Assembly: GCA_003246295.1 (NCBI GenBank)
Contig: QKAS01000057.1
Span: forward strand, 969 to 32,968
Source of the DNA: Clostridia bacterium
GTDB lineage: Bacteria; Bacillota; Clostridia; Lachnospirales; Lachnospiraceae
DNA length: 32,000 bases
Direction of reading: 5' to 3'
The stretch's first letter is position 1, and each line of letters begins with the position of its first letter. A program made the translations under genes and the position numbers. Of the stretch, positions 3,063 through 22,022 are shown in pieces. The notes beneath the pieces were generated by a model. That model did not search any database. It was not told the DNA's origin and saw nothing but the letters and a program-made list of their open reading frames with translations.

Positions 3063-3278
3063 ATGGTATGAAATCATCATACCATTCCGTCGATTTGGTA
3101 TGAAAAAGTGATACTATTTTGGCAAAATGGTATGAAAACGTCATACCATGAAATTGTACTAGGGGAAACGAAATTGAAATCGTGAGCTCAGATGGTATGA
3201 AAACGTCATACCATATTAAGAAAATGGTATGAAAATACAATACCATTATGGCAAAATGGTATGAAAACATCATACCAT
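3063..3278. repeat. Six copies of a 23-bp palindromic (hairpin-forming) repeat, ATGGTATGA-N5-TCATACCAT, in 32-bp register.
   Basis: Copies start at 3063, 3095 (degenerate), 3127, 3192, 3224 (right arm degenerate) and 3256. Spacings are 32, 32, 65, 32 and 32 bp. The region is non-coding and lies between the toprim gene and the mob genes. Confidence 0.9.
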
Positions 3279-3297
3279 TGCGCTAAAGACAGGGGTT

Positions 3298-3315
3298 TTA
3301 GGGGGTGACCCCTAA
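3298..3315 (+). other. Perfect 7-bp stem with a 4-nt loop: TTAGGGG-GTGA-CCCCTAA.
   Basis: Read directly from the sequence. It lies just downstream of the palindrome array and upstream of mobC and the relaxase gene, so it is a candidate oriT or nic-region hairpin. Confidence 0.5.
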
Positions 3316-3323
3316 CCAGTGGC

Positions 3324-3959
3324 ATGAGACGGCTCTCGTGCGTATCTGGCAAAGTCCTTCGGACTTTTCAGGGGGCATTCTCAAAGGTGGAAAGAAAAGA
3401 ACGGATAAGAAAGGGGGCTACAAAAGCGTTGGAGAATGACAGAAAATTAATAACAGAAGCAAGGCAGCTTATCGATTGGTTGGATGTGAATGACATACTT
3501 ATGAACCTTTCGGAGAAGGACATTACTCTTCTGATGAATTATATGGAAGGTCATGGATACCAGCTTGGAATTAATTCTGAGAGACTATTCAAAATCAGTA
3601 AAGATTCGTTGGCTGATCAGGCGGTAGCTATATCCATTGATGATATTATTGATTCTGTATGTGATTGGAATTATGAAATGATTCAACATGCTAAGGAGAA
3701 TCTGGAGCATGCAACCGGTATGGGTGAATATCTCCAAGCACAGGAGTATTACAATGGTGTAAGAGTAGATGAGGGTATCCTTGATAAGATGTTTGATCAG
3801 ACTTATTATGGCAAAGAAATCATTCGGTTGGCAGAAAGATTGGCTGGAGAAGCAATACAACAACTACAGAAAACAGGGAATATTGATAAGGTATCAATGA
3901 CTGTCGCTGATACGATCAAGGATTATGGTACGGAACAAGAAAAGGGTAAGGTGAGATAA
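3324..3959 (+). CDS. Hypothetical protein upstream of mobC; the start is uncertain (an in-frame GTG at 3387 or a later codon is more plausible than ATG 3324).
   Basis: The 211-codon ORF ends TAA at 3957-3959 and overlaps the mobC ATG by 1 nt. No family was recognised. The 5' 60 nt contains hairpins and has poor coding character. Confidence 0.55.
   Translation: MRRLSCVSGKVLRTFQGAFSKVERKERIRKGATKALENDRKLITEARQLIDWLDVNDILMNLSEKDITLLMNYMEGHGYQLGINSERLFKISKDSLADQAVAISIDDIIDSVCDWNYEMIQHAKENLEHATGMGEYLQAQEYYNGVRVDEGILDKMFDQTYYGKEIIRLAERLAGEAIQQLQKTGNIDKVSMTVADTIKDYGTEQEKGKVR
3351..3367 (+). other. Perfect 7-bp stem-loop: AAAGTCC-TTC-GGACTTT.
   Basis: Read directly from the sequence. It lies inside the first 15 codons of track ORF 3324-3959, which argues that the true start of that gene is further downstream. 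Confidence 0.5.
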
Positions 3960-4288
3960 TGGCTGACAGGATACACTGTGTGAAGAAGACGCTTCGACTA
4001 ATGCCGGGAGAAGCAAAGGAGTTAGCACAAAAGGCTGAAATGGCAGGTATGTGTGAGGCGGACTATCTTCGTTTTTTAATTTCACAGAAGCCGAATGACT
4101 ATCCTGAAATCCGAATACTCCTAAAGCAATTAACAAATGAAATAAACCGTATTGGTAACAATATCAACCAAGTGGTTTATAATAATAATTCGGAGCTATA
4201 CCGGAGGGAGGATAAGGAGAATCTGAATGCCTATATGAAAAAACTGAATCTGACCATGAAAGAGGTGGTGGAGCAGTTTGGCAATTAG
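3959..4288 (+). CDS. mobC: MobC-family relaxosome accessory protein.
   Basis: LRLMPGEAKELAQKAEMAGMCEADYLRFLI and INRIGNNINQ match the MobC (bacterial mobilisation protein) pattern. The gene is immediately upstream of the relaxase gene and overlaps it. Confidence 0.85.
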   Translation: MADRIHCVKKTLRLMPGEAKELAQKAEMAGMCEADYLRFLISQKPNDYPEIRILLKQLTNEINRIGNNINQVVYNNNSELYRREDKENLNAYMKKLNLTMKEVVEQFGN

Positions 4289-5807
4289 TAAGATTCTTTA
4301 TATTAAGGATTGTGGAAGCAGTCATAATGGGAAGCATTTACGACAAGCAATCAATTATATCATGGTAAAAGAAAAAACGGGAAATGGTAAATATGTGGGT
4401 GGATTGAACTGTCAACCGGAGTTCGCTTATGAACAGATGAAAAAGACCAAGGGAATATTCGGGAAGGTAGAGGGCAGGCAGGGATATCATCTGATTATTT
4501 CTTTTGAAGATGGAGAGGTTGATGCACCAACTGCTTTTGAGATCATTGGTCGATTTACAAATGAGTATCTGGCAAACGGATACGAAGCCGTTTATACGGT
4601 TCATGATAATACAGATCATATTCACGGTCATATCCTATACAATAGTGTAAATTTTATAACAGGCATGAAATATCGTTATGAAAAAGGTGATTGGGCGAGG
4701 GATATTCAGCCAATTACAAATCGGTTATGTCAAGAATATGGGTTATCTACCATAGAAATATCGGAGGACAGAGAAAAACCAGATCATAAATTTAAGGAAT
4801 GGAATGATTATCGAGACGGGTCATATGCATGGAGTAAAATGATTTGTAGAGATCTGGATGCCTGTATCTTACAGTCTCAGTCATTTGATACTTTTGTTGA
4901 ATTGTTGAGTGAGAAGGGGTATGAGGTCAAACAAGGCGGAAAGTATCTGGCAGTTAAACCGATGGGTATGATTCGATTTAAACGATGCAAAACCCTTGGA
5001 GAAGAGTACACGGAAGAAAGAATCAAGGAGAGGATTTTGACAGAAACCTTAACCTTAACCGTACCTCAGAACAAGAATATTGCGCCTCATATTATCCGGT
5101 GCAAGGTGAAGCGCTTGAAAAGAGCAAAGCTCACAAAACTTCAGAAAAGATACTATGCCAGGTTGTACCGAATTAGGAAACTAAAAAAGCGACCATATAG
5201 CCAGGTATGGAAATACCGGGATGAAATTCGTAAGATGCAGCAGATCCAAGAACGGTATCTGTTTCTATTGAATCATGAAATTATGAGTATAGAAGAATTG
5301 GTTGTCGTAGGTGACCGAATTGCTGAAGGTAGTAAGAAAATCTCTAAGGAGAAGAGCAGAACCTTCAAAGCTAGAGCCAAGTGCCAGTCACTCTTTGATA
5401 TTGCAGCAGAGATGGAGGAACTAAAGGATGCAGAAAGTAGCTTTGTACGAGGGGAGTTGTTCTTTCAGGCAGAGCATGAAAGGTATCATGAACTGGCTGA
5501 ACAGCTCCGAGTAGAAGGATATTGTTTCGAGGAAGTAATGGAGTTAAGAGAGAATTATCGAAATGAGATATCACAGGTAAAAGAGAAAGAAAAAGCAGCT
5601 GCAAAAGAGATATCAATCGTAAAGGCTATCATAAGAGAAACGATGGAAGAAAAGATACGTCAGCAAAAGCAATCCGTGATCAACGAGGAAATTCCAGAAA
5701 TTAAGATGAAACAGTCAGCAGAAACTGCACATTCAGACCTAACACATTTAGAATCAATAGAGAAGGCATTAGAAGAGCAAAAAGGTGAGCGACAGCCAAG
5801 AAGATAG
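4278..5807 (+). CDS. MobA/VirD2-family relaxase (MOBP-like) with a long coiled-coil C-terminus.
   Basis: The histidine triad is VHDNTDHIHGHILYNSVN. The N-terminus MAISKILYIKD...AINYI is typical of this family. The start is TTG 4278, after GAGGTGGTGGAG. Confidence 0.9.
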   Translation: MAISKILYIKDCGSSHNGKHLRQAINYIMVKEKTGNGKYVGGLNCQPEFAYEQMKKTKGIFGKVEGRQGYHLIISFEDGEVDAPTAFEIIGRFTNEYLANGYEAVYTVHDNTDHIHGHILYNSVNFITGMKYRYEKGDWARDIQPITNRLCQEYGLSTIEISEDREKPDHKFKEWNDYRDGSYAWSKMICRDLDACILQSQSFDTFVELLSEKGYEVKQGGKYLAVKPMGMIRFKRCKTLGEEYTEERIKERILTETLTLTVPQNKNIAPHIIRCKVKRLKRAKLTKLQKRYYARLYRIRKLKKRPYSQVWKYRDEIRKMQQIQERYLFLLNHEIMSIEELVVVGDRIAEGSKKISKEKSRTFKARAKCQSLFDIAAEMEELKDAESSFVRGELFFQAEHERYHELAEQLRVEGYCFEEVMELRENYRNEISQVKEKEKAAAKEISIVKAIIRETMEEKIRQQKQSVINEEIPEIKMKQSAETAHSDLTHLESIEKALEEQKGERQPRR

Positions 5808-5823
5808 GCTGTTATTTTTTTGT
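5792..5823 (+). terminator. Intrinsic terminator overlapping the relaxase stop codon.
   Basis: ACAGCC (5792-5797) pairs with GGCTGT (5807-5812) around a 9-nt loop, followed by TATTTTTTTT. Confidence 0.55.
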
Positions 5824-5906
5824 CCAGATTCAGTTTGGTAATGCTTTTAAAAACTATGCTTCATAGGGTAATGCAAAATTAATAAATGGAAGTGAGGAGG
5901 ATTTAT

Positions 5907-7058
5907 ATGCAAGAGCAAATGCAGATAAACAAAGTGGATATCGGTATTATGATAGGAGATCTGGAAAGAACAGGCAAATATAGTGACGACCAGATTCAAC
6001 TAATTAGGGAAGATTTACTCTATGGACTTAGCAAAGAGTCGATAGAAAGGTATACCCAGAAGAAATACGATCTTAAACAGATGCAGGTTTTCTCAAAGTG
6101 TTTGAGAAACAATTATCCGGAGGAGGTCATTGCTGCGATTACGGCAAACGGTCTTAGTTGGCAGCAGATGGAGGTTGCGTTGGAATTCTATGAGAAAGGA
6201 ATTTCGATTGAAACCATTTCGAAGGTAGCATCTGGAGATGTAACAGCTGCCAATATGAAAAGAACATATCAAAGGGTTCTGAATGAGATGGAAAAGTCAG
6301 TTAGTAATGGTGATGGTAATGAACCTTACGTGAAACAGCTTATGGAGCAGATTAATGCAGTTGTAGATAAGCTTGAGTTTCAGGAACAGCGTTATGATTC
6401 TTTGAATCAGAAGTTGAGGGGTATGGAGATAGCAAAGAAGAATTCTGAAGAGGAGATTAAGCTTCGAAAGGAATTAGAAGAAAAGGATGCACTGCTCATT
6501 GAGCAACAGAATAAGCAAAATAATCTGCATGCAACAGTAGCCAAGCTTCAAAATGATTGCGAGGTGCTGCGAAAGGAGAAGGGTGAGATGGAAAAGATAT
6601 TAAATGAAGTAAGAGGAAATAATCAGCAAAGAGAATTTGGCGATGCAAAGAAGGATGTCGTAGTGACAGGATCAGAAGCAGGTAGGAGGCTAGAACCGGT
6701 GGAACCCATGCCGTTATATTATGGAATGCCGATTGGCTATAGCTTGTGCGTGATGAATGGTAATACGGTTATCATACCAGTAGTACCAATTGAAAAAACA
6801 GTAAGAAAAACTTCTGGTTCCATTGGAATTTTCTCTAGGCTATTGCTTAAAAAGAAATCCAGACAGGATCTTGTCAAGCTGATCACCGAAAAGGAATTGA
6901 CACCGGGGCAGTTAATTCAAATCAAAAGTGCTATCGAAAAGGGATTAGATGAAGATCAGTTACAAGAACTGATTCAAAACAAGGTTTCTGCAGAACAGAT
7001 GGAAATTATTATTGAGATTGCGACAATGCAAAACAGCAGGGGGGAATTGAGAGGATGA
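5907..7058 (+). CDS. Hypothetical coiled-coil protein with related ~40-aa modules at its N- and C-termini.
   Basis: GAGGAGG at 5894-5900 precedes ATG 5907. The central segment (EFQEQRYDSLNQKLRGMEIAKKNSEEEIKLRKELEEKDALLIEQQNKQNNLHATVAKLQNDCEVLRKEKGEMEKI) is coiled-coil-like. Confidence 0.7.
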   Translation: MQEQMQINKVDIGIMIGDLERTGKYSDDQIQLIREDLLYGLSKESIERYTQKKYDLKQMQVFSKCLRNNYPEEVIAAITANGLSWQQMEVALEFYEKGISIETISKVASGDVTAANMKRTYQRVLNEMEKSVSNGDGNEPYVKQLMEQINAVVDKLEFQEQRYDSLNQKLRGMEIAKKNSEEEIKLRKELEEKDALLIEQQNKQNNLHATVAKLQNDCEVLRKEKGEMEKILNEVRGNNQQREFGDAKKDVVVTGSEAGRRLEPVEPMPLYYGMPIGYSLCVMNGNTVIIPVVPIEKTVRKTSGSIGIFSRLLLKKKSRQDLVKLITEKELTPGQLIQIKSAIEKGLDEDQLQELIQNKVSAEQMEIIIEIATMQNSRGELRG

Positions 7059-7450
7059 GTTTAAATGTTGTGAATGAAGCAGTAGTTGAGATGGATTCTA
7101 AGAAGCATTCTTTTGGTGAGATGGAAAGAAAGTTCATTCTGGAATTTGCTTTTAAATCACAGGATAAAGAGCTGACGAAGCAACTGATTATGGAATTGAT
7201 GAATCCTGATGTGGACAGTCATATGGTTATGAACCGCTTTGGAATATTACTGGATCAAAAGCCTGTATGGTTGACTCAGATTGAGAACCTTCTTGTAGCT
7301 CTTGAGATGTACCGCATCGAAGAGGAAAAGGCGATTAATCGTCTATCTGAAATTATGAGAGCTTATGATATCGATATTTCAGAGGATATGCTTCGCAATC
7401 AGCCGTTGGATGAGATTAAGGAGCATGTGAAAAAGGGAATCAGTTTATAA
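7055..7450 (+). CDS. Hypothetical protein, 131 aa.
   Basis: An ATGA overlap with the upstream stop (7055-7058) suggests translational coupling. No family was recognised. Confidence 0.6.
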   Translation: MSLNVVNEAVVEMDSKKHSFGEMERKFILEFAFKSQDKELTKQLIMELMNPDVDSHMVMNRFGILLDQKPVWLTQIENLLVALEMYRIEEEKAINRLSEIMRAYDIDISEDMLRNQPLDEIKEHVKKGISL

Positions 7451-7466
7451 GAAAGTAGGTGTAACT

Positions 7467-8567
7467 ATGTCAGAGATACAGGATGCTGTTCAGATTATTC
7501 GAATCGCTTACGACGGAATCGAGATCGCCATGAAGGTAGGGAGTGGAACGATCGAATCCATGAAAAAGGCGATTGATTTGTTGGTTGGACTTTTGGATTA
7601 TGAAAAGTCCATGGGGAAATCCTCTATGCGAAAACTCTTACAAAAGGGAGGAGATCTACAGGTATTTCAGTTTCATACGGATGAACTCAAGAAGGTCGAA
7701 CGAATGGCGAAGAAGTATGGAGTACTATACTCAATCTTGCCTGACGTAAATAAAGAAGATAATCGGAGTGAAATTATTTTTCATTCAGAGGCATCACCAC
7801 GGATTAATATGATGGCGCAGAAATTGGGATTCGGAGAGATTGCTGGTCTTGATGATTATCTGAAGAATAGTAGTGAAAAGGATCTTGGTAAGATGCTTGC
7901 GTTTCTCCAGGCACAACAGAGGGGAAACGGGATAAGCCACACAGGTGAAGCAGTTAAAGCAAATATTTTGATGGAGGGACTAATTGAGAAGGTCGGACTA
8001 TTTGCGATGGAAAAACAGAGCATCAGTGTGGAGACGATTAAGGAGAACTTTCGTATCGAAACAAACCAGGCACAGGAAGTGATTAACAAGCTTGGAGCGA
8101 TTGGAGTATTGGATCAGGGAGATTTGGAAGGGAATTTTCGCGTACTAATGGATAAGGATTCATTTCAGAATCGAATTCGTGGATATCAGGAGCTGGCAGA
8201 TCGTATGAGAACGGTTTCAGCTTCTAAGAATAGGGATCTTGTTGATATCACAATCGCAAAGCAGCTTGTCTGGGAGGAGAATGATCATGCGGTCAAGACA
8301 AGGATTCCGGGTGGTAGTAAAACGTTCATTTGGCTTAATAAGTCAGATGTTATGGAAATTCACGATGGAAAGACGTTGTTGACATTCCTGGATAAGAATA
8401 AGGAGTATAAGATATACTCCGAGGATAATCAGGTCGTTAACCGGATGCGTGGAGATCAATTATACGATAAGCATTATGATATCGTTGCAAATGAGGTTCG
8501 ACAACGGTATGAGAGGTTTCAACCGCAAGCGAATTTGAACCATGCAATCAAAAACAAGGCGAGGTGA
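7467..8567 (+). CDS. pcfB: PcfB-family (DUF3801) conjugation protein.
   Basis: The N-terminus (AVQIIRIAYDGIEIAMKVGSGTIESMKKAIDLL...LQVFQFHTDELKKVERMAKKYGVLYSILPD) matches the PcfB/DUF3801 pattern. The position directly upstream of the coupling protein gene is the same as in pCF10-type systems. Confidence 0.8.
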   Translation: MSEIQDAVQIIRIAYDGIEIAMKVGSGTIESMKKAIDLLVGLLDYEKSMGKSSMRKLLQKGGDLQVFQFHTDELKKVERMAKKYGVLYSILPDVNKEDNRSEIIFHSEASPRINMMAQKLGFGEIAGLDDYLKNSSEKDLGKMLAFLQAQQRGNGISHTGEAVKANILMEGLIEKVGLFAMEKQSISVETIKENFRIETNQAQEVINKLGAIGVLDQGDLEGNFRVLMDKDSFQNRIRGYQELADRMRTVSASKNRDLVDITIAKQLVWEENDHAVKTRIPGGSKTFIWLNKSDVMEIHDGKTLLTFLDKNKEYKIYSEDNQVVNRMRGDQLYDKHYDIVANEVRQRYERFQPQANLNHAIKNKAR

Positions 8568-8572
8568 ATCAG

Positions 8573-10765
8573 ATGGTACAGAAGAAAAAGGGAATACATC
8601 CATCGTTCATCTTACTGGGTGCTCTGATTAGTGTGTATTTGGGATATCTGATTAATGGTGCATGGAAGAAAGGGATTGGATATCAGGAGTTTATGAACCG
8701 ACTCAATACGGTCATGGAAACTCCAATTGCGAATTATTATAATAGCAATACCAGTAAAGCGATGGTGATAGCCTTGAGTGTCTACATTATCGCTCTTCTT
8801 ATTTATATTACAAGTAAAAAGAACTATATGCCCGGTAAGGAATATGGTACGGCAGCCTTTGCTAACATTAGTCAGGTTAATAAGATACTAGCGGATAAGG
8901 AGAAAAGTTTTAACCGAATTCTAAGTCAGAATATCAGAATGAGTCTGAATACCAGAAAGACTAAGCTGAATAATAATGTTCTGATTATCGGCGGTTCCGG
9001 AGCTGGAAAGACTTTTTATGAGGTTAAGCCGAATTTGATGCAGATGCCACATCATTGCTCCTTTATTTTAACCGATCCAAAAGCCGAAATTCTTAGAAGT
9101 TGCGGAGAAATGCTCAAGCAGAACGGGTATAAGGTTAGAGTAATTAATCTTCTTGAAATGGAAAAGTCAGATGGATATAATCCGTTTGCTTATATCCGAG
9201 AAGAAACAGATGTTATTAAGCTGATTACGAATCTGATTGCTAATACAACTCCTAAGGGAAGTAACAGTTCAGATCCATTTTGGGAGAGATCGGAAAGTTT
9301 GTTCTTGCAAGCCATTTTCTATTATGTATGGTTGCAGGAACCGATGTCACGAAGAAATTTTGAGACGGTATTGGAGTTGCTTGGTGAGGCTGAGGTGACA
9401 GAACCGAATAAGCCTTCAAAACTTGATGAAAGAATGCATCGTCTGGAGTTTGAATCACCACTGGGATGTAATCATCCTGCGCTTAAGCAGTATAACAAAT
9501 GTATGCGAGGTGCAGGAGATACCGTTCGAAGTATTATAATTAGTGCAAATTCACGCCTTGCATTTCTTGAAAATAAGCAGGTACTACGGATTTTGGCTAG
9601 GGATGAGATGAATTTGGCTGAGCTTGGTCTTGGAGTAAATGGCGATGGTGAAACGCGGACAGCAATCTTTTGCGTGACGCCCGATAGCGATAAATCGTAT
9701 AATTTCTTATTGGGTTTATTCTATACCCAGGTTTTTCAAGAATTGTATTATCAAGCTGATTTCAATTGTGGAGGAAGACTTCCAATCCATGTGACATTGA
9801 TGCTGGACGAATTTGCCAACATCGCATTGCCCGATGATTTTTGCAGTCTTCTCTCCACCATGAGAAGCAGAGAAATCAGCTCAGTGATTATCATTCAGAA
9901 TCTGGCACAGATCAAGGCGCTATTTAAGGATACCTGGGAAACAATCGTGGGCAATTGTGACAGTTTGGTGTATCTAGGTGGAAATGAGGCATCCACCCAT
10001 AAATTCATCTCGGAGCTACTAGGAAAAGGAACGATAGACAAGAAATCCAGTGGTGAGACAAAGGGACGGCAGGGAAGCAGTAGCCGTAACTATGATGTAC
10101 TGGGAAGAGAATTGCTAACACCGGATGAGGCAAGAAAGCTGGATAATAAGAAATGCCTAATCTTTATCCGAGGGTTTGATCCGATTATTGATTCGAAATT
10201 CATACCATTTGGACATCATTCATTCTCACAGACTTTGGATGGCAAGGGAAACGCTTATGTTCATGTACCAATATCAGATACAGGGATTTCAGGACCACCA
10301 TTTGAGTTCTTAAGTCCCTGTTCAGTAAAGTATTATGAAAAGCGGAAGGAAAAAGGCGATAATGTATATATCGATACCTTAAATTATGAGGAGTTCCAGA
10401 TGCTTGATCATGTTGGAATAGAAAAACGGTTTACTGATCAATGGATAGAAATGGAACGATCTGAAAAATCATTGGATCAGCAGAATATGGGTAACAGATT
10501 AGATAATGATCATAAAGATACGAATAGCGTAAAGTTTAAATCTCCTATTTCGGTTCAAAGGTTACCTATCCGAGGGGTAGATACAATTACGAACCGATTG
10601 ATTCAATGGAAGTATTCCAAAGAGCAGACAGAAGAGTTAAAGCATGCATTAAGAACTGGGATTCCTGATAAGGAGATTATGGATTACTTTTATCCGGACA
10701 CAGCGGTGGAAGAGATGCAGCGAATCAGAAATGAATTTGTGGTAGCGACTGTAACTAAATCATGA
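8573..10765 (+). CDS. Type IV coupling protein (VirD4/TraG family ATPase).
   Basis: Two N-terminal TM segments, Walker A (IIGGSGAGKTF) and Walker B (VTLMLDEFANI). ATG 8573 follows AAGGCGAGGTGA; the track start at 8564 is GTG. Confidence 0.92.
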   Translation: MVQKKKGIHPSFILLGALISVYLGYLINGAWKKGIGYQEFMNRLNTVMETPIANYYNSNTSKAMVIALSVYIIALLIYITSKKNYMPGKEYGTAAFANISQVNKILADKEKSFNRILSQNIRMSLNTRKTKLNNNVLIIGGSGAGKTFYEVKPNLMQMPHHCSFILTDPKAEILRSCGEMLKQNGYKVRVINLLEMEKSDGYNPFAYIREETDVIKLITNLIANTTPKGSNSSDPFWERSESLFLQAIFYYVWLQEPMSRRNFETVLELLGEAEVTEPNKPSKLDERMHRLEFESPLGCNHPALKQYNKCMRGAGDTVRSIIISANSRLAFLENKQVLRILARDEMNLAELGLGVNGDGETRTAIFCVTPDSDKSYNFLLGLFYTQVFQELYYQADFNCGGRLPIHVTLMLDEFANIALPDDFCSLLSTMRSREISSVIIIQNLAQIKALFKDTWETIVGNCDSLVYLGGNEASTHKFISELLGKGTIDKKSSGETKGRQGSSSRNYDVLGRELLTPDEARKLDNKKCLIFIRGFDPIIDSKFIPFGHHSFSQTLDGKGNAYVHVPISDTGISGPPFEFLSPCSVKYYEKRKEKGDNVYIDTLNYEEFQMLDHVGIEKRFTDQWIEMERSEKSLDQQNMGNRLDNDHKDTNSVKFKSPISVQRLPIRGVDTITNRLIQWKYSKEQTEELKHALRTGIPDKEIMDYFYPDTAVEEMQRIRNEFVVATVTKS

Positions 10766-15935: not shown

Positions 15936-15958
15936 CACTATCAGGGGAGGTGAGTAGG

Positions 15959-17272
15959 ATGATGATTAAGAAGGTTGAAACAAAGCCAATGCAGATTCAT
16001 AAAAAACAGGATATTAAGATTCATAAAACTGTAATAATGAATCCCACTCCCAATGCGAGAAGGAAGCGTTATCTATTGCGAGGACCAGGGATAAAATCCG
16101 TAAGGATTCCGGTTGATGCAGTCTATCGATATCGTATGAGTAGAAATGGGAATGTCTCGCGGATTATGAATCATTTTCCAAATACAGCAAATCCTATGAA
16201 GTCTGAAGTTGGTAAACAACATCACTTTACCACAGCACAGAGTATTGGAGTTCTCGGTGGTACAATCGTGACGGAGCAACTGGAGGGAGGAGAAGAACTA
16301 CACGACAGTTCTGCTCTTGCAGGAATGGCGTTGCATCCATTTGTGGAAACCATTTCAGCGGGAAAAAACATGTATCAAGATAAAACTCAGTTGTTACAAC
16401 TAGCAAAAAAGATTAAGAAAGTTGATTCAGATAAACGAGCATTGCACCAGAAAAAAAGTGATTATTCAAAACGAAGATATAATAAGAAAACGGTTGGAGC
16501 GTCTAATAATGATAATTCAAAAGGATTGAAAGTAGTAGGAAAAAGGGATACCAAACCTAAAAAAGGCAGAACAGAGATTAAGAACAGCACAAGGAACCGA
16601 ATGCTGCACTTTTTTATCAATAAGTTCGGACAGAATGACAAAGGAGATAATATTGAAGTAGTTATGAAGGATCTGGTCATGATGAGGGTATCCATCATGG
16701 TAAAACATCTGGCTGGGTATATCGGAGGACTGCTTTTGATGCTGATGTTGCTAATAGCGATCGTTTCACTGATAGTAATGCTTGTAATCGCTGTTATTTA
16801 TAATTCACCGTTTGCCATCTTCTTTCCACCACTTGAGGAGGGAGATACAGTGAAGAGTGTGACCAGTTCCTATATACAGGAGTTCAATCAAGAAGTGTCA
16901 ACCCTTGCCTATGCACATTCTGGTTATGATGCGGGCTATGTAACTTATTCTGGTGCAGTAACAGATACCTTAAATGATGTTATGGTGGTTTATATGGTGA
17001 AGTATGGCGTTGGGGATACCGCATCGGTTATGAATGAAACAATGAAACGTAAGCTAAAGGATGTTTTTGAGGATATGTATAGCTTTTCAACAACTGTGGA
17101 AGCGGTGACCATTGAAAATGAAGATGAGACCACGACAACTCGTTATATATTACATGTGATTGTGACAAAAAGAACGTATGTAGATATGATCCAGATCTAT
17201 GGATTTGATGCTGAGGAAGTTCAGATGTTGGAAGAAATGATGCTGCCGGAGAATTTGGCTTTATTACAATAA
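15959..17272 (+). CDS. Basic, single-pass membrane protein. It resembles the N-terminal part of the CD1108-family / PrgK-like cell-wall hydrolases, but no hydrolase domain is present.
   Basis: GGGGAGGTGA precedes ATG 15959. A K/R-rich N-terminal ~250 aa is followed by a TM helix (GGLLLMLMLLIAIVSLIVMLVIAVIY) and then SPFAIFFPP...SYIQEFNQEV. The ORF stops at 17272 and I could find no lysozyme, CHAP or NlpC/P60 motifs. Confidence 0.6.
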   Translation: MMIKKVETKPMQIHKKQDIKIHKTVIMNPTPNARRKRYLLRGPGIKSVRIPVDAVYRYRMSRNGNVSRIMNHFPNTANPMKSEVGKQHHFTTAQSIGVLGGTIVTEQLEGGEELHDSSALAGMALHPFVETISAGKNMYQDKTQLLQLAKKIKKVDSDKRALHQKKSDYSKRRYNKKTVGASNNDNSKGLKVVGKRDTKPKKGRTEIKNSTRNRMLHFFINKFGQNDKGDNIEVVMKDLVMMRVSIMVKHLAGYIGGLLLMLMLLIAIVSLIVMLVIAVIYNSPFAIFFPPLEEGDTVKSVTSSYIQEFNQEVSTLAYAHSGYDAGYVTYSGAVTDTLNDVMVVYMVKYGVGDTASVMNETMKRKLKDVFEDMYSFSTTVEAVTIENEDETTTTRYILHVIVTKRTYVDMIQIYGFDAEEVQMLEEMMLPENLALLQ

Positions 17273-17332
17273 GGAATTTTGATGTGCATAGAGATATATG
17301 CATGAAGACATTAAAATATGGAGGAAACGTAT

Positions 17333-17713
17333 ATGATGAATAATACAACAATGGATTTAAAGAAAGATATGGAGTATCTGCTATTGGAACTCCAAAAGGA
17401 ATGGGAAGCGAGTGGAACAACGAGAGCAACAGTCGCTATTCAATTAGAAGAAGCACAAGAAGTGAATAAAAGGCTGCAGAAGGAAATCAATGATCGCCAG
17501 GTGCTATTAACGCAGGAGGAAATGACCTTTGAGCAAAGTATCCAGTTTACAAAACAGAACTATATCCTGCTGAGGCTGATAAAAAAGATTCTACGAAAAG
17601 AGCAGAGGACGAATAAGAAGGGGTTTGATTGTGAGTTCTCAGTTACACTTGATAAAGAGGAGTATCGAATTTTTCGAGAGCTAGTTCTAGTTGAGGACAA
17701 TAAAAACGTATAA
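17333..17713 (+). CDS. Hypothetical coiled-coil protein.
   Basis: GGAGG at 17320-17324 lies 8 nt before ATG 17333. No family was recognised. Confidence 0.55.
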   Translation: MMNNTTMDLKKDMEYLLLELQKEWEASGTTRATVAIQLEEAQEVNKRLQKEINDRQVLLTQEEMTFEQSIQFTKQNYILLRLIKKILRKEQRTNKKGFDCEFSVTLDKEEYRIFRELVLVEDNKNV

Positions 17714-17756
17714 TCGAAAATAAGAATGTAGAAAGTTGATATGGAGGTGTTGAAAG

Positions 17757-20700
17757 TTGAGAGTTGATTATCAGGTAAAGCAGATCTATGATATGATGAT
17801 CCAAGAAGTAGCAACAAGTGAGCTTAAATGGAGAGATGTGTGCCGCTTAATGGGACAACTCTATCGCTATGAGTTTGATAATATTTTGATGATATATGCT
17901 CAGCGGCCACATGCAACTCTGGTCGCTGATTTTGATACATGGAAGAAAGTGAACCGTTATGTAATGCGTGGGAGTAAGGGGATCGCAATTTTTCCTTCGA
18001 GAGCACTGCATCCACGAATGAGATATGTTTTTGATATCTGCGATACAGGTGGGAAGAAACAGGATTTAACATGGGATTTGAATGGTGAGAAGCTGACGGA
18101 TTTTGTGGCTTTCATGAAAACAAGTGGATTATTCAAAGAAGAAAGTAATCAAGTGGATTCTGACGATCTTGATGCGCAGGACATTTTTCAGAAAATTTTG
18201 AAGACTCAGCTAAAAAACTTTACAAGAACATACGTTCGAGCTATAATAAAAGAAGAATATTCAGATCGAATCAATGAGCTAACGAGATTAGTCGGGGAAT
18301 ACGGTCTGGAAAAAGACGATATTATGAACGAAGCAGATAATTCACCTAACAGTCCAGTAGCACAATTTATTTATCAAAGTGCTTTCTATGCCATCGGCAC
18401 AAGGTGCGGTTTTGACCTTGACATTCAGGAACAGGATTTTGGTTCGGTACTTCGATACCAAAGTGAAGATGAGATATATCTGATCGGGACATTGGTAAGT
18501 GATATCTCCTGTAACGTTCTAAGAGAGTTTGCAAGAAACCTAAAACAGATGGAAAAGCAGAGAATGCTGCTAGAAGAAAGGGGTATAACACATGGCAGAG
18601 ATCGCATTGACTTATACGGAGAAGGAGGGAATCCTATATCCGAATCTGGAGTTACCGAAGGAGGAAGAGCTGAATCTCCACAACCTTGGGAAATACGGAA
18701 TGATGGCATTGAATTATCTGATGGAGAACGAACCGGCACGGCTCAAGACATTAATGAGATTCGGATTGTTGACACAGAAAATGTACGAAGTGGACGAAGA
18801 GGCAAATCAGCTTCTGGATATCCTCATGATGGACTATCTGGCGAAGAACAAGCCGAGAGATCCAAATTCCACGATAGAGATGTGGCAGATCAGAGAGCAG
18901 GCGAAGATGCAGGCAGAGGAAATCGTATTGAATCAGATCGTATTGAAATTTCATTAGAACATGATCAGATTGAGAGCGAAATAAAACAGGAACTGGATGA
19001 AATCAATTCATTCGGCAAGCAAGGGGAAGCCAATTACCAACAGGCTTCCTTTTCTTTTGACAATGCAGTGGGTCAGACTAAATACACCTATCTGGAAGCG
19101 AAGAAAGAATTGATAGTACCCCATGAATATGTCGTGGAAGTGATATTGCGTGGTTCGGGCTTTGCTAATGGAAAAGGACGAATTGCTATAATATATCAGA
19201 ATGAGTCAGTTCCTTCTGAACGAGCAAAGTTAATCAAGAAGGAATATGGATTAGGTGGTGCAGGATGGCCGATCGATGGTTATGGATTACATGGGTATAA
19301 CACTTTTAAGAATCAGGGTATTGGTATTAAATGGAGAGATGAAGAAGGAGAAAAGGAAGGCTATGTAAGCTGGGCAGTTGTAGAGCAGGAAATCGGGGCT
19401 CTGATATTGACTGGAGTATATGATAAAGATCAATTACAGAATAATACGAAATCAATTGATGGTGACAGTGTTGGTTATGACGAGATCGAGCTGGTAGATG
19501 AAAATGATACTGACCATGAAGATAGGGAGTCGCTTCAACGAGAACAACAATGGATCGATGATGAAATCCTTGATGATTTTGCTATCCCGGATGAGCTGGA
19601 TGAGATGTATGGAGTGGTAGATGAAGTTGTGACAATCGAAGGGTTATCAGAAGACAGACTCCCCAATGATCTGGAATATATGAGTGACATTACAACCAGA
19701 AGTGTGGAAGTCGGTTCCTTGCCTCGTTCTTTGATTATCACTGAAAAGAGAAACTTCCATTATACTCAGTTGGATGTTGATGCTGCTGGAGCAAAGACCA
19801 GATACAATTGGAATGTGGAAGCAATCCGCACATTATTTCAGATTGAAGGTGACGGAAGATTTGCTACTACTGAGGAACAAAAGGTTTTGGCAAAATATGT
19901 TGGCTGGGGTGGATTGTCACAGGTATTTAATGATGCAGACAATTCGTGGAGACATGAATATGTGGAACTAAAGAATTTACTATTAGAAGATGACTATGTG
20001 GCAGCAAGGGCATCGGTTAACAATGCTTTCTATACCTCTCCTGAAATTGCAAGCTGTAAGAATCAAGCGCTTGTTCGGTTTGGATTTCAAAATGGCAATA
20101 TATTGGAACCATCCATGGGTATCGGAAATTTCTTTGGATCACTTCCGACAGCCATGCAGAATTACAATCTCTTTGGAGTGGAGATTGATTCGATATCGGG
20201 ACGAATTGCGAAGCAACTGTATCAAAACGCTGATATTCGAATCACTGGATTTGAGAAAACTTCATTTCCTGACAACTTCTTTGATGTGGCAATCGGGAAT
20301 GTTCCCTTTGGTGATTATAAGCTTTTTGATCCGAAGTATAATAAGCTGAACTTTCGTATCCATGATTACTTTCTGGCGAAATCAATCGATCAGGTGAGAC
20401 CGGGAGGAATCATTGCCTTTATCACAACCAAGGGAACACTGGATAAGAGCAATCCTTCCGTAAGAAAATACCTTGCAGAGCGAGCAGAATTAATTGGAGC
20501 TATACGACTTCCGAATACAGCTTTCCGCGATAATGCGGGGACGGATGTAGCGACAGATATCTTATTTTTGCAAAAGAGAGAGCGAGCCATCGTGGTAGAA
20601 CCAGATTGGGTACACTTGGGTTATACAGAGAATGGAATTGCGGTTAACTCTTATTTTGTAGAGCATCCCGAGATGATGCTTGGAACGATGGAATATGATA

Positions 20701-21599
20701 CAAGGATGTTTGGTGATGGGAGCAAGTATACTACCTGTGTGAATCGAGATCCTGACTTTAATCTGTATGATTCCATACAGAAAGCCATTTGGTCATTATC
20801 AGCCACGATCACTGATTATGAGAGGTTCGAGGATATTGCAGAAGAACCGTCTGATCATATTCCTGCTAGTCCTGATGTGCGTAATTACACCTATACTTTT
20901 ATGGATGGAAAGCTGTATTACAGAGAGAATTCAAGAATGTATCAAAAAGAGTTAAGCCTCAATATGGAGGAGCGCATCAAAGCGATGGATAAGATCAGGA
21001 TAATAACTAGAGAACTGATCACGCTTCAGACTGAAGGATGCAGCGAGGAGGTATTGATTAATAATCAGAAGAGCTTGAATGAGACTTACGATGCATTTAC
21101 AATGAAGTACGGCTATCTTACAAGCAGGGAGAATGATAGAGCCTTCCGTAATGATTCAGACTATCCTTTGCTCTGCTCTCTTGAAGTAGTGGATGAGGAT
21201 GGTAAGGTGAAGAAAGCTGATATGTTCTACAAGCAGACCATCAAACCAAAGTTAATCATAGAGCGGGTAGAAACGGCGGTAGAGGCACTGAATATATCTA
21301 TGAATGAGTATGGCACGGTTAATCTTCCCTTTATGTTAAGTATTTATCATCCATGTATTACAAATATTTTTGAGGACTCTCATCAAGTCAGTATCATATC
21401 AGAGCAGGAAAAGGCAGAGCTGGAACGAAAAATGATTATCGATGAACTGTCGGGGCTTATTTTCCTGAATCCAATGTCGTATAATGAGAACAACTTAAAT
21501 GCTGGATGGGAAAGTGCGGATGAGTATTTGTCGGGGAATGTGAGGGATAAGTTCCGAATTGCCAAGGCATTTGCCGAAACGAATCCGGAGTTGTTTTGA
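17757..21599 (+). CDS. Polyvalent conjugative-element protein. It has an ArdC-like N-terminal domain, a low-complexity linker, a conserved GSGF...EYGLGGAGW module and a gamma-type N6-adenine DNA methyltransferase domain. It ends at an in-frame TGA.
   Basis: GGAGGTG at 17743-17749 lies 7 nt before TTG 17757. The ArdC-like segment is YEFDNILMIYAQRPHATLVADFDTWKKVNRYVMRGSKGIAIF. The methylase motifs are motif I (ILEPSMGIGNFFG, ~20100) and motif IV (VAIGNVPFGDY, ~20290). Homologues as I remember them continue into a helicase region that is absent here. Confidence 0.85.
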   Translation: MRVDYQVKQIYDMMIQEVATSELKWRDVCRLMGQLYRYEFDNILMIYAQRPHATLVADFDTWKKVNRYVMRGSKGIAIFPSRALHPRMRYVFDICDTGGKKQDLTWDLNGEKLTDFVAFMKTSGLFKEESNQVDSDDLDAQDIFQKILKTQLKNFTRTYVRAIIKEEYSDRINELTRLVGEYGLEKDDIMNEADNSPNSPVAQFIYQSAFYAIGTRCGFDLDIQEQDFGSVLRYQSEDEIYLIGTLVSDISCNVLREFARNLKQMEKQRMLLEERGITHGRDRIDLYGEGGNPISESGVTEGGRAESPQPWEIRNDGIELSDGERTGTAQDINEIRIVDTENVRSGRRGKSASGYPHDGLSGEEQAERSKFHDRDVADQRAGEDAGRGNRIESDRIEISLEHDQIESEIKQELDEINSFGKQGEANYQQASFSFDNAVGQTKYTYLEAKKELIVPHEYVVEVILRGSGFANGKGRIAIIYQNESVPSERAKLIKKEYGLGGAGWPIDGYGLHGYNTFKNQGIGIKWRDEEGEKEGYVSWAVVEQEIGALILTGVYDKDQLQNNTKSIDGDSVGYDEIELVDENDTDHEDRESLQREQQWIDDEILDDFAIPDELDEMYGVVDEVVTIEGLSEDRLPNDLEYMSDITTRSVEVGSLPRSLIITEKRNFHYTQLDVDAAGAKTRYNWNVEAIRTLFQIEGDGRFATTEEQKVLAKYVGWGGLSQVFNDADNSWRHEYVELKNLLLEDDYVAARASVNNAFYTSPEIASCKNQALVRFGFQNGNILEPSMGIGNFFGSLPTAMQNYNLFGVEIDSISGRIAKQLYQNADIRITGFEKTSFPDNFFDVAIGNVPFGDYKLFDPKYNKLNFRIHDYFLAKSIDQVRPGGIIAFITTKGTLDKSNPSVRKYLAERAELIGAIRLPNTAFRDNAGTDVATDILFLQKRERAIVVEPDWVHLGYTENGIAVNSYFVEHPEMMLGTMEYDTRMFGDGSKYTTCVNRDPDFNLYDSIQKAIWSLSATITDYERFEDIAEEPSDHIPASPDVRNYTYTFMDGKLYYRENSRMYQKELSLNMEERIKAMDKIRIITRELITLQTEGCSEEVLINNQKSLNETYDAFTMKYGYLTSRENDRAFRNDSDYPLLCSLEVVDEDGKVKKADMFYKQTIKPKLIIERVETAVEALNISMNEYGTVNLPFMLSIYHPCITNIFEDSHQVSIISEQEKAELERKMIIDELSGLIFLNPMSYNENNLNAGWESADEYLSGNVRDKFRIAKAFAETNPELF
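18592..18957 (+). CDS. tnpV: TnpV-like 121-aa ORF nested in the +1 frame inside the polyvalent ORF.
   Basis: ATG at 18592, preceded by GAAAGGGG (18575-18583); stop TAG at 18955-18957. The translation MAEIALTYTEKEGILYPNLELPKEEE..LGKYGMMALNYLMENEPARLKTLMRFGLL..VDEEANQLLD..MWQIREQAKMQAEEIVLNQIV follows the TnpV family pattern over its full length. Confidence 0.55.
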   Translation: MAEIALTYTEKEGILYPNLELPKEEELNLHNLGKYGMMALNYLMENEPARLKTLMRFGLLTQKMYEVDEEANQLLDILMMDYLAKNKPRDPNSTIEMWQIREQAKMQAEEIVLNQIVLKFH

Positions 21600-22022
21600 G
21601 TTAATGTAAAGGCACTGGAGCAGGTTCAGCCTAGGAATCTGGACGCTTCGGAAATTGATGTGAGAATCGGAACTACTTGGATTGAGGCTGAGGATTATGA
21701 GAAGTTCATTTATGAATTGCTAAATACACCGCGTAGAGCAAGGGTAATGAGAAGTCAGTATTACGATTCTGGAATCCAGATTCATTTCATAGCCTTGTTC
21801 TCAAGAAACCATTCCATGCTCATCATTTATCAGGACGTGTGTTATCCGGTAACAAAGGAGTTTCGTGAAAAACTTTATGGAGAGGTGATGAAAACATATG
21901 AGGAAGAAAAGGAAAAGAAGCAGGAGGAGCAACAAAAAATGATTTGCAGAAAGAGAAAGAAAAATCAGGACAGTTTCTGTGTTTACATTAAAAAGTTACT
22001 ACTCGTTAGATTGGAGCAGTAA
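21600..22022 (+). pseudogene. Same-frame continuation of the polyvalent gene beyond the TGA (about 21600-21790), followed by unrelated sequence to the TAA at 22020-22022.
   Basis: 17757 and 21660 are in the same frame. The reading after the TGA is VNVKALEQVQPRNLDASEIDVRIGTTWIEAEDYEKFIYELLNTP, which is the segment that follows the methylase domain in full-length homologues as I remember them. Resemblance ends near GIQIHF (~21790). Confidence 0.6.

Follow-up and report, generated by a model that had tools for sequence, protein, structure and literature searches.

Can one segment of DNA serve both as a complete gene for a small folded protein and as an internal part of a much larger open reading frame (ORF) on the same strand? 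The question is raised by a 32,000-nucleotide (nt) stretch from a Clostridia bacterium of the Lachnospiraceae (contig QKAS01000057.1, positions 969 to 32,968), hereafter the window, which carries part of a conjugative element. In this element, an ORF of 1280 amino acids (aa) with a TTG start (17757..21599, + strand), hereafter the host ORF, encloses the whole of a second ORF, tnpV. The starts of the two ORFs are 18592 − 17757 = 835 = 3 × 278 + 1 nt apart, which places tnpV in the +1 frame. An earlier description of this DNA, the original prediction, had claimed a 121-codon TnpV-type ORF at 18592-18957, preceded by a Shine-Dalgarno-like box 8 nt 5′ of its ATG. It had offered three explanations: (a) a globular protein overprinted on a disordered linker, (b) a frameshift product joining two proteins, and (c) three genes that only look fused. 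The ORF is present as described and so is the box, GAAAGGGG at 18576-18583. Based on the conservation and substitution patterns described below, the locus is very likely a case of conserved dual coding, in which a resident tnpV occupies the +1 frame and the host gene reads the same DNA as a linker.

The identity of the small product was evaluated using hidden Markov model searches. The 121-aa sequence matched Pfam TnpV (PF14198) at 83.3 bits against a cutoff of 27 (E = 1.5e-23), with product residues 7-117 aligned to profile positions 1-111 of 111, as expected from the claimed assignment. No model matching TnpV was found in NCBIfam. The product also has the size of the ~120-aa class of TnpV proteins and, like them, is encoded on a Firmicutes mobile element. 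Unlike the Tn4451 copy, the window tnpV is not free-standing, a difference in gene organization that has no bearing on membership in the protein family.

The host ORF was analyzed in the same way. Its methylase part matched Pfam Eco57I at 27 bits (cutoff 25.3) over aa 822-915. The N-terminus matched Pfam ArdcN at 21.1 bits, below the cutoff of 22.6, and a relative encoded by a Clostridium perfringens plasmid (L084) exceeded this cutoff at 25.2 bits. The label 'ArdC' given in the original prediction is thus supported by the relative but is sub-threshold in the window, and we refer to an ArdC-N-like domain. Homologues of the host ORF combine ArdcN, methylase and SNF2/helicase domains; in the window, the methylase scored above its cutoff and ArdcN below, and the helicase part has been lost. 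Over the tnpV bases, the host frame reads HGRDRIDLYGEGGNPISESG..., the G/R/E/D/S-rich stretch that had been quoted. The first host-frame ATG past 18957 is indeed at 19605, although GTG and TTG codons occur from 19068.

Conservation of the two-frame layout was evaluated in two samples of relatives. For the TnpV side, 281 TnpV-encoding stretches were identified by a profile search of a genome set with one member per species. The 85 loci analyzed on this side were the window, the best 80 of these stretches, and two loci each from NCBI and from plasmids. On the host side, metagenomes were scanned with an alignment of the ArdC-N-like domain only, a procedure blind to TnpV, to give 80 loci. In all 85 TnpV-side loci, the tnpV ORF was intact and the host frame had no stop across it, while the third frame had 6-20 stops. 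The open stretch of the host frame began 770-900 nt 5′ of tnpV and usually ran to the end of the locus, for >1700 codons. All 80 host-side loci contained tnpV in the +1 frame, 79 at full length and one cut by the contig end. In these loci, tnpV began 10-30 nt past the ArdC-N-like domain and no host-frame stop occurred in the overlap. Host stops further 3′ of the overlap were present in five of them, and are probably indels or decay. Over both samples, tnpV was in the +1 frame in 165/165 loci (164 full-length), with host stops in the overlap in 0/165. The original prediction had pointed to stop-filled +1 frames, or to an interrupted host frame, as grounds for giving up its finding. The +1 frame was open and TnpV-like in every homologue sampled from either side, and the host frame of the overlap was uninterrupted in each.

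These counts bear on the possibility that the locus comprises three separate genes (ardC-like, tnpV and methylase/helicase), whose fused appearance would come from a purine-rich strand poor in stop codons. The Prokaryotic Genome Annotation Pipeline (PGAP) treats the locus in much this manner: it calls tnpV and either starts the large gene past it, as in the Enterococcus faecium record (L002), or leaves gaps (L001). Moreover, ORFs of ~120 codons can arise by chance in the +1 frame of the host gene. Specifically, a second ATG-initiated +1 ORF of 119 codons occurs in the methylase region (19990-20349) and is not conserved, as 1-8 stops were found in 113/113 unique homologous segments. The purine-rich host gene thus yields long chance ORFs, and because a non-conserved ORF of equal size occurs in the same gene, we did not accept ORF length alone as evidence. 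What sets the tnpV ORF apart is its family match and its conservation in the related loci. Further, standalone tnpV genes (L085-L089) carry 6-11 stops in the equivalent −1 frame, against none across the nested copies. No stop terminates the ArdC-N-like domain ahead of the overlap in the TnpV-side loci, and the downstream part in the window would be without an ATG until well into its sequence. Together with the strict stop avoidance described below, these data make explanation (c) extremely unlikely.

The layout also occurs in divergent lineages. The main nested clade comprises Lachnospiraceae and related taxa (Roseburia, Blautia, Lachnospira, Anaerostipes, Eubacterium, Lacrimispora and Butyrivibrio) and also includes E. 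faecium. Plasmids of Clostridium botulinum and C. perfringens carry full-length TnpV ORFs that are 36-44% identical to that of the window, with Pfam scores of 86 bits (L083) and 85 bits (L084). In these plasmids, tnpV lies ~710-730 nt into genes of ~2000 aa labelled 'SNF2-related' or 'helicase-related', and there are no host-frame stops. In C. perfringens, the ArdC-N domain of the host protein scores above threshold, and the protein shares 46% identity with the methylase part in the window. A third lineage, of metagenomic origin (L171), has an ArdC-N-like domain and a TnpV that are 28% and 37.5% identical, respectively, to those of the window. Here, GAAAGGAG, a 7-nt spacer, the ATG and the nested TnpV are found in a 565-aa ORF (1294-2997), in which the nested tnpV/linker connects the ArdC-N-like domain to a small C-terminal module. 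The DUF6908/methylase/SNF2 helicase part forms a separate gene of 1913 aa (3075-8816). By these comparisons, the layout recurs in three deeply divergent lineages. Because the architecture of L171 is split, the methylase fusion is not a constant feature; the position of tnpV directly past the ArdC-N-like domain is. A megablast search of the host gene against the PLSDB plasmids returned no matches.

Selection on each frame was evaluated using 69 unique nested coding sequences. The entropies at TnpV codon positions 1, 2 and 3 were 0.51, 0.32 and 0.89 bits, respectively. Variability thus tracked the TnpV phase, and the least variable position, the second of TnpV, is the third of the host frame. 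Translations of the TnpV frame had a mean pairwise amino acid identity of 75.5%, as compared to 53.6% for the host frame and 56.1% for the stop-filled third frame. The Nei-Gojobori ratio of nonsynonymous to synonymous differences (pN/pS) was 0.29 for TnpV, with a median ratio of the corresponding substitution rates (dN/dS) of 0.16, and 1.0 for the third frame. The host value of ~2.2 is an expected artefact, since the 'synonymous' sites of the host frame are the constrained second positions of TnpV. This pattern indicates purifying selection on the TnpV frame. With identities as low in the host frame as in the third frame, no selection on the host-frame amino acid sequence was detected. The host-frame peptide would then be sequence-neutral, its only detectable constraint being to remain stop-free and, possibly, hydrophilic.

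The requirement for a stop-free host frame left a distinct trace in tnpV. A host-frame stop requires T at the third position of a TnpV codon, followed by a codon that starts with AA, AG or GA. T occupied the TnpV third position in 0/2837 such stop-creating contexts as compared to 15.3% elsewhere; in the standalone tnpV genes, T was present in 19% of these contexts. When only four-fold degenerate codons were considered, T was found at third positions in 0/1123 cases before AA, AG or GA, versus 204/1619 (12.6%) elsewhere. In alignment columns with a varying next codon, T occurred 277 times, always with a harmless neighbor, and in 0/1912 dangerous contexts. This covariation between T and its neighbor is hard to explain otherwise than by avoidance of host-frame stops. 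Overall, the test of both frames that had been proposed returned constraint in the TnpV phase (dN/dS ~0.16-0.29) together with stop avoidance in the host frame.

The composition of the host-frame reading was also considered. G, R, E, D and S each account for 10-15% of the residues, and hydrophobic residues for 15%. This composition arises largely because the E/K/M/Q/A/L-rich TnpV sequence, with its G/A-rich third positions, is read one base earlier. The −1 frame of the standalone genes, a small control set, was more hydrophobic (25.7%), which hints at extra selection for a soluble linker.

The same measures were used to weigh the idea that tnpV is the unexpressed fossil of a captured gene and that the host frame alone is expressed. 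Most gene callers omit tnpV: those of the Prodigal type report the giant ORF and miss the small one, such that there are 59 close clusters of called TnpV proteins versus at least 1211 host clusters. TnpV is also without an assigned function. Nevertheless, the TnpV phase, unlike the host phase, carried the signal of classic purifying selection, and the ORF, ATG and Shine-Dalgarno box were intact in all loci down to 36% identity. A relic would decay, and we regard the fossil explanation as scarcely credible.

Signals for tnpV expression are similarly conserved. A GAAAGGAG-type box was located 7-9 nt 5′ of the ATG in nearly all nested loci, including the distant L084 and L171. Prediction of the local RNA fold gave an unremarkable structure (z = −2.4) in which the Shine-Dalgarno box is unpaired. 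A promoter-like element matching 11/12 positions of the sigma-70-type consensus lies 373 nt 5′ of the tnpV ATG in the window, and was the best upstream site in 56/73 unique loci. Among 53 unique aligned segments, the entropies of its two hexamers were 0.12 and 0.19 bits, versus 0.90-1.11 bits for the spacer and flanks, and synonymous sites within the element (TTT, ACA and ATA) were frozen. The hexamers were always 17 nt apart, and their codon phase was constant except for a doubtful 9/12 match in L083. The Shine-Dalgarno box, the ATG and the promoter-like element point to independent expression of tnpV.

These nucleotide signals also leave marks in the host protein. The promoter-like element explains the isolated invariant residues T156 and I163, which stand in a poorly conserved region. 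The codons of host E274-R275 are GAA-AGG, the tnpV Shine-Dalgarno box, and host L400 overlaps the TnpV stop codon. The few 'invariant' residues of the host linker are shadows of nucleotide signals. A conserved motif at the linker start, which the original prediction had ascribed to homologues, is real in spirit in that E274-R275 is invariant, but these residues are the host-frame translation of the tnpV Shine-Dalgarno box. Scanning 17000-19600 against Rfam returned a chance match only and no frameshift element. This chance match and the unremarkable fold of the start region gave no grounds for proposing an RNA switch.

Explanation (b) supposes programmed +1 ribosomal frameshifting that yields an ArdC-N::TnpV fusion instead of, or beside, free TnpV. 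A profile search of 1.84 billion representatives identified 2409 TnpV relatives, the top 150 being 50-379 aa long, and the database proteins P0204 and P0275 do resemble such fusions. Each of the two is a singleton: in P0204, the change of frame comes ~25 residues into the overlap, and P0275 (L170), from a single 2.4-kb contig, differs from its sister L171 by a one-base frame change. In the window, a TAA lies in the TnpV frame two codons (6 nt) 5′ of the ATG. Among the loci, the open extension upstream in the TnpV frame varies from 0 to ~40 codons, so there is no conserved N-terminal extension. The strong Shine-Dalgarno box and ATG are conserved, and the Rfam result offers no frameshift element. 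Frameshifting is therefore very improbable, if slightly less so than the three-gene and fossil explanations.

The two fusion-like proteins were also considered as Rosetta-stone fusions and rejected: as singletons consistent with one-base indels, they were read as mutations or assembly errors. Chimeric proteins in the database (P0204, P0275 (L170 929-2038), P0158 and P0179) pass from ArdC-N into TnpV or from TnpV into the host frame further downstream. They are all singletons that fit one-base indels or deletions in individual contigs, and the locus is easily mis-translated.

The structures of the two products were predicted using AlphaFold2 (AF2). With an alignment, the TnpV model contained a β-hairpin at residues 7-18 followed by helices. 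Its mean predicted local distance difference test score (pLDDT) was 77.8, with block means of 82-91 over residues 31-120. A model of the N-terminal 581 residues of the host protein had pLDDT values <50 at residues 275-446 and 23-31 at 281-400, without secondary structure at 279-402, and confidently predicted helices flanked this stretch on both sides. This agrees with the disordered linker that had been postulated between the ArdC-like and central modules. The ArdC-N-like domain itself was modelled with pLDDT values of mostly 70-89 and low confidence at aa 51-102 and 182-196.

Searches with TnpV provided few leads as to its function. Foldseek returned no match in the PDB (best E = 0.5) and, in BFVD, a best E of 0.12 to an uncharacterised siphovirus protein. 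A profile search of PDB sequences yielded noise only, and the PHROGs match was to a family without an assigned function. TnpV of the Tn4451/Tn4453 type was once postulated to be Xis-like (PMC3158075). This idea received no support, as there was no sequence or fold match in the PDB.

In the dual-coding reading, ribosomes initiating at the internal Shine-Dalgarno box and ATG would produce a folded protein of ~14 kDa comprising a β-hairpin and a helical bundle. Ribosomes arriving from the start of the large ORF would translate the 366 nt of tnpV with a one-base shift to give ~125 unstructured, G/R/E/D/S-rich residues, which would tether the ArdC-N-like domain to the downstream modules. The absence of T from TnpV third positions that precede AA, AG or GA keeps the host frame stop-free. 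The promoter-like element would be active and both products would be made. This corresponds to explanation (a), with which the open +1 frame, the uninterrupted host frame and the avoidance of stop-creating sites all agree. We have moderate confidence that the TnpV frame is the older and that the host-frame linker was overprinted on it. More tentatively, TnpV could assist DNA transfer or establishment as a small accessory factor, acting alongside the ArdC-N-like domain; the suggestion, in which our confidence is low, stems from its invariable position by that domain and from the ParB_N genes that adjoin its standalone copies.

A variant of this explanation, and not a contradiction of it, is that the host frame is kept open only for co-expression or stoichiometry of the modules. 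The disordered stretch would then be cut by proteases and have no role as a tether. The host-frame sequence is no more conserved than a non-coding frame and is predicted to be disordered, both of which are consistent with this variant. Auto-processing of polyvalent proteins into functional units has been proposed in a passage of PMC12084326 that cites PMC5512222. In addition, the separate methylase/helicase gene of L171 implies that physical linkage is not obligatory. On the other hand, a Pfam scan detected no peptidase domain in the host protein, and the ArdC-N-like domain of L171 is still fused via the overlap to a C-terminal module. We consider the variant without a tether unlikely, though far from negligible.

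The features of the locus are listed in Table 1.

Table 1. Coordinates of features at the tnpV/host locus, numbered from the first base of the window.
Feature	Coordinates	Strand	Remarks
ArdC-N-like domain, N-terminus of host ORF (aa 1-278)	17757..18590	+	Pfam ArdcN below cutoff in the window; conserved in homologues
Promoter-like element, intragenic (TTTACA-17 nt-TATAAT)	18219..18247	+	At host Phe155-Thr156 ... Ile163-Ile164, in the ArdC-N-like coding region
Shine-Dalgarno box of tnpV, GAAAGGGG	18576..18583	+	8 nt 5′ of ATG; host frame reads invariant Glu274-Arg275
Host-frame low-complexity tether, predicted disordered (~aa 279-446)	18591..19094	+	Residues 279-401 are the −1-frame reading of tnpV
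tnpV cistron	18592..18957	+	121 codons, ATG to TAG (18955-18957); +1 frame relative to host ORF; dual-coding segment
Downstream host modules: conserved KYTYL...GSGF...EYGLGGAGW module and N6-adenine methylase	19095..21599	+	Eco57I match and alignment of homologues
Host-gene remnant past the nonsense codon (VNVKALEQVQP...RIGTTWIE...SGIQIHF)	21600..21790	+	Translation compared with intact relatives

Bases 1 to ~21800 of the window belong to the conjugative element. Its genes encode DUF5688, RadC, DUF3991/Toprim, a relaxase, DUF3801, a VirD4-type coupling protein, DUF4313, PrgI and a VirB4-like ATPase. The host ORF adjoins these type IV secretion and relaxase genes, with the same synteny in L001 and L002. 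It ends at an in-frame nonsense codon, 21597-21599 (…PELF-stop-VNVKALEQ…), which is colinear with intact homologues. Homology to the intact relatives, which are ~2000-2240 aa long and include an SNF2 helicase, continues to ~21790 and is followed by a SpoVG-like C-terminal fragment (Pfam SpoVG positions 43-82 of 82, with a score exactly at the gathering cutoff). Past ~22000, the window contains chromosomal genes of lower G+C content (AraC-family regulator, GH2, Fe-ADH, TauE and LarA). Based on the nonsense codon and the loss of homology near 21790, the host gene in the window is a truncated pseudogene remnant in which tnpV and the overlap are intact. The element appears to be truncated on its right side.

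Two ORFs between the VirB4-like and polyvalent genes, 15950-17272 (440 aa) and 17318-17713 (131 aa), had no Pfam match. L001 encodes a 629-aa NlpC/P60-Amidase_5 protein at this position, and the 440-aa ORF possibly represents a cell-wall hydrolase that has diverged or become degraded.

Several points weigh against the dual-coding reading. The literature searched contained no transcript, Ribo-seq or proteomic evidence for either product. The host gene being a pseudogene in the window, dual coding may no longer be important in this copy. The samples of relatives are phylogenetically clustered, with many human-gut loci from one clade, and the related sequences mean that the nominal Fisher p-value for T avoidance overstates independence. 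The standalone control set (L085-L089) is small, with three unique genes. The promoter-like element is ~340-380 nt from the tnpV ATG and is not evident in the Clostridium plasmid copies L083 and L084 (9/12 matches). TnpV had no sequence or fold match in the PDB that could suggest a role. Finally, in a neighbor-joining tree of the window and L001-L088, the nested copies were not monophyletic and the standalone genes fell within the nested diversity. In the tree, the standalone genes were also closer to the main nested clade than the nested plasmid copies were. Nesting is thus not simply monophyletic, gain or escape may have occurred more than once, and tnpV may have been captured by read-through or have originated in situ.

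The three unique standalone tnpV genes (L085/L086 4058-5432; L087 3684-5375; L088 673-2090) are each found directly 3′ of a gene encoding a ParB_N domain. They are followed by VapE-like, ALP_N (actin-like partition) or unassigned genes in small mobile elements. The adjacency to ParB_N may be a clue to the partner or function of TnpV. Standalone TnpV proteins (L087 and L088) are 50-58% identical to the main nested clade, and the nested plasmid copies (L083 and L084) are 36-45% identical to it. Because the nested copies thus span a deeper divergence than that between the standalone proteins and the main clade, the nested state could be ancestral. In that event, the TnpV family would have been born or fixed in the linker, and the free copies of the Tn4451 and ParB-linked types would be escapees. 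We think this unlikely, but if it were true, a widespread Pfam family would be traceable to overprinting.

Each element of the arrangement has precedents. The TnpV proteins of Tn4451/Tn4453 and related mobilisable transposons and that of the window are alike in belonging to PF14198, in their length of ~120 aa and in their occurrence on mobile elements of Clostridia. By contrast, the tnpV genes of these transposons are free-standing, as are the relatives found after ParB_N genes, with their 6-11 stops in the −1 frame, whereas the whole of the window tnpV is enclosed by a giant ORF that is read in a different frame. Same-strand genes nested out of frame include Rz1 in Rz of phage lambda, comS in srfA-B, and genes B, E and K of phiX174. 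Like these genes, tnpV is short but complete, has start signals of its own, and is out of phase with the longer same-strand gene that encloses it; both frames are used in those systems, as would be the case here. The tnpV gene differs in being longer (121 codons), in belonging to a widespread Pfam family that also exists independently, and in being borne by chromosomal integrative and conjugative elements (ICEs) or plasmids in many genera. Further, it is the nested frame that is under protein selection, while the host reading is disordered and unconstrained, the reverse of the usual polarity.

Homologues of the host ORF resemble the polyvalent proteins of Iyer et al. 2017 (PMC5512222): they are multidomain proteins of conjugative elements that combine an ArdC-N-like domain, a methylase and an SNF2 helicase. 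The host ORF itself, in which the ArdcN match is sub-threshold and the helicase part is lost, lies next to type IV secretion genes and may be of the same kind. That study mentions neither TnpV, overlapping genes nor linkers, while here one inter-domain linker is the alternative frame of a resident gene. The ardD gene, antisense within tniA of Tn5053 (PMC3533173), is likewise an accessory mobile-element gene hidden in a larger mobile-element gene. However, ardD is on the complementary strand, while tnpV is on the same strand, in the +1 frame, and is conserved across hundreds of loci. No prior description of the nested TnpV/polyvalent overlap was found in the literature, most subscription journals being outside the search, and the papers that mention TnpV do so as an annotation label only or for standalone genes. 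Thus, TnpV, polyvalent proteins and same-strand nesting are each known, while the nested arrangement appears to be undescribed, in line with the original prediction.

Annotation of the locus varies between records. In L001 (5184-10038) and L002 (5217-6615), the NCBI annotation includes tnpV but only a truncated large ORF or none, and the ArdC-N-like domain is left unannotated. In the plasmid records L083 and L084, the large gene alone is annotated and tnpV is missing. Domain censuses of anti-restriction proteins in ICEs and plasmids, and those of TnpV, are biased by such annotation. Apparent linker motifs (E-R, L400, T156 and I163) that are shadows of a Shine-Dalgarno box, a stop codon and a promoter-like element likewise call for caution in the definition of domains.

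If dual coding is true, tnpV and its host would be among the longest of the same-strand nested gene pairs of bacteria, and among the most widely conserved. Their polarity would be unusual, in that the nested small gene encodes the folded and selected protein and the giant gene uses the alternative frame as a disordered tether. The locus would illustrate how, in nature, two genes can be joined over a third that lies between them and is itself retained, a 'gene fusion by overprinting'. It would also tie TnpV to the ArdC-N-like/methylase/helicase module of the conjugative elements that carry tet and erm resistance genes in gut Firmicutes.

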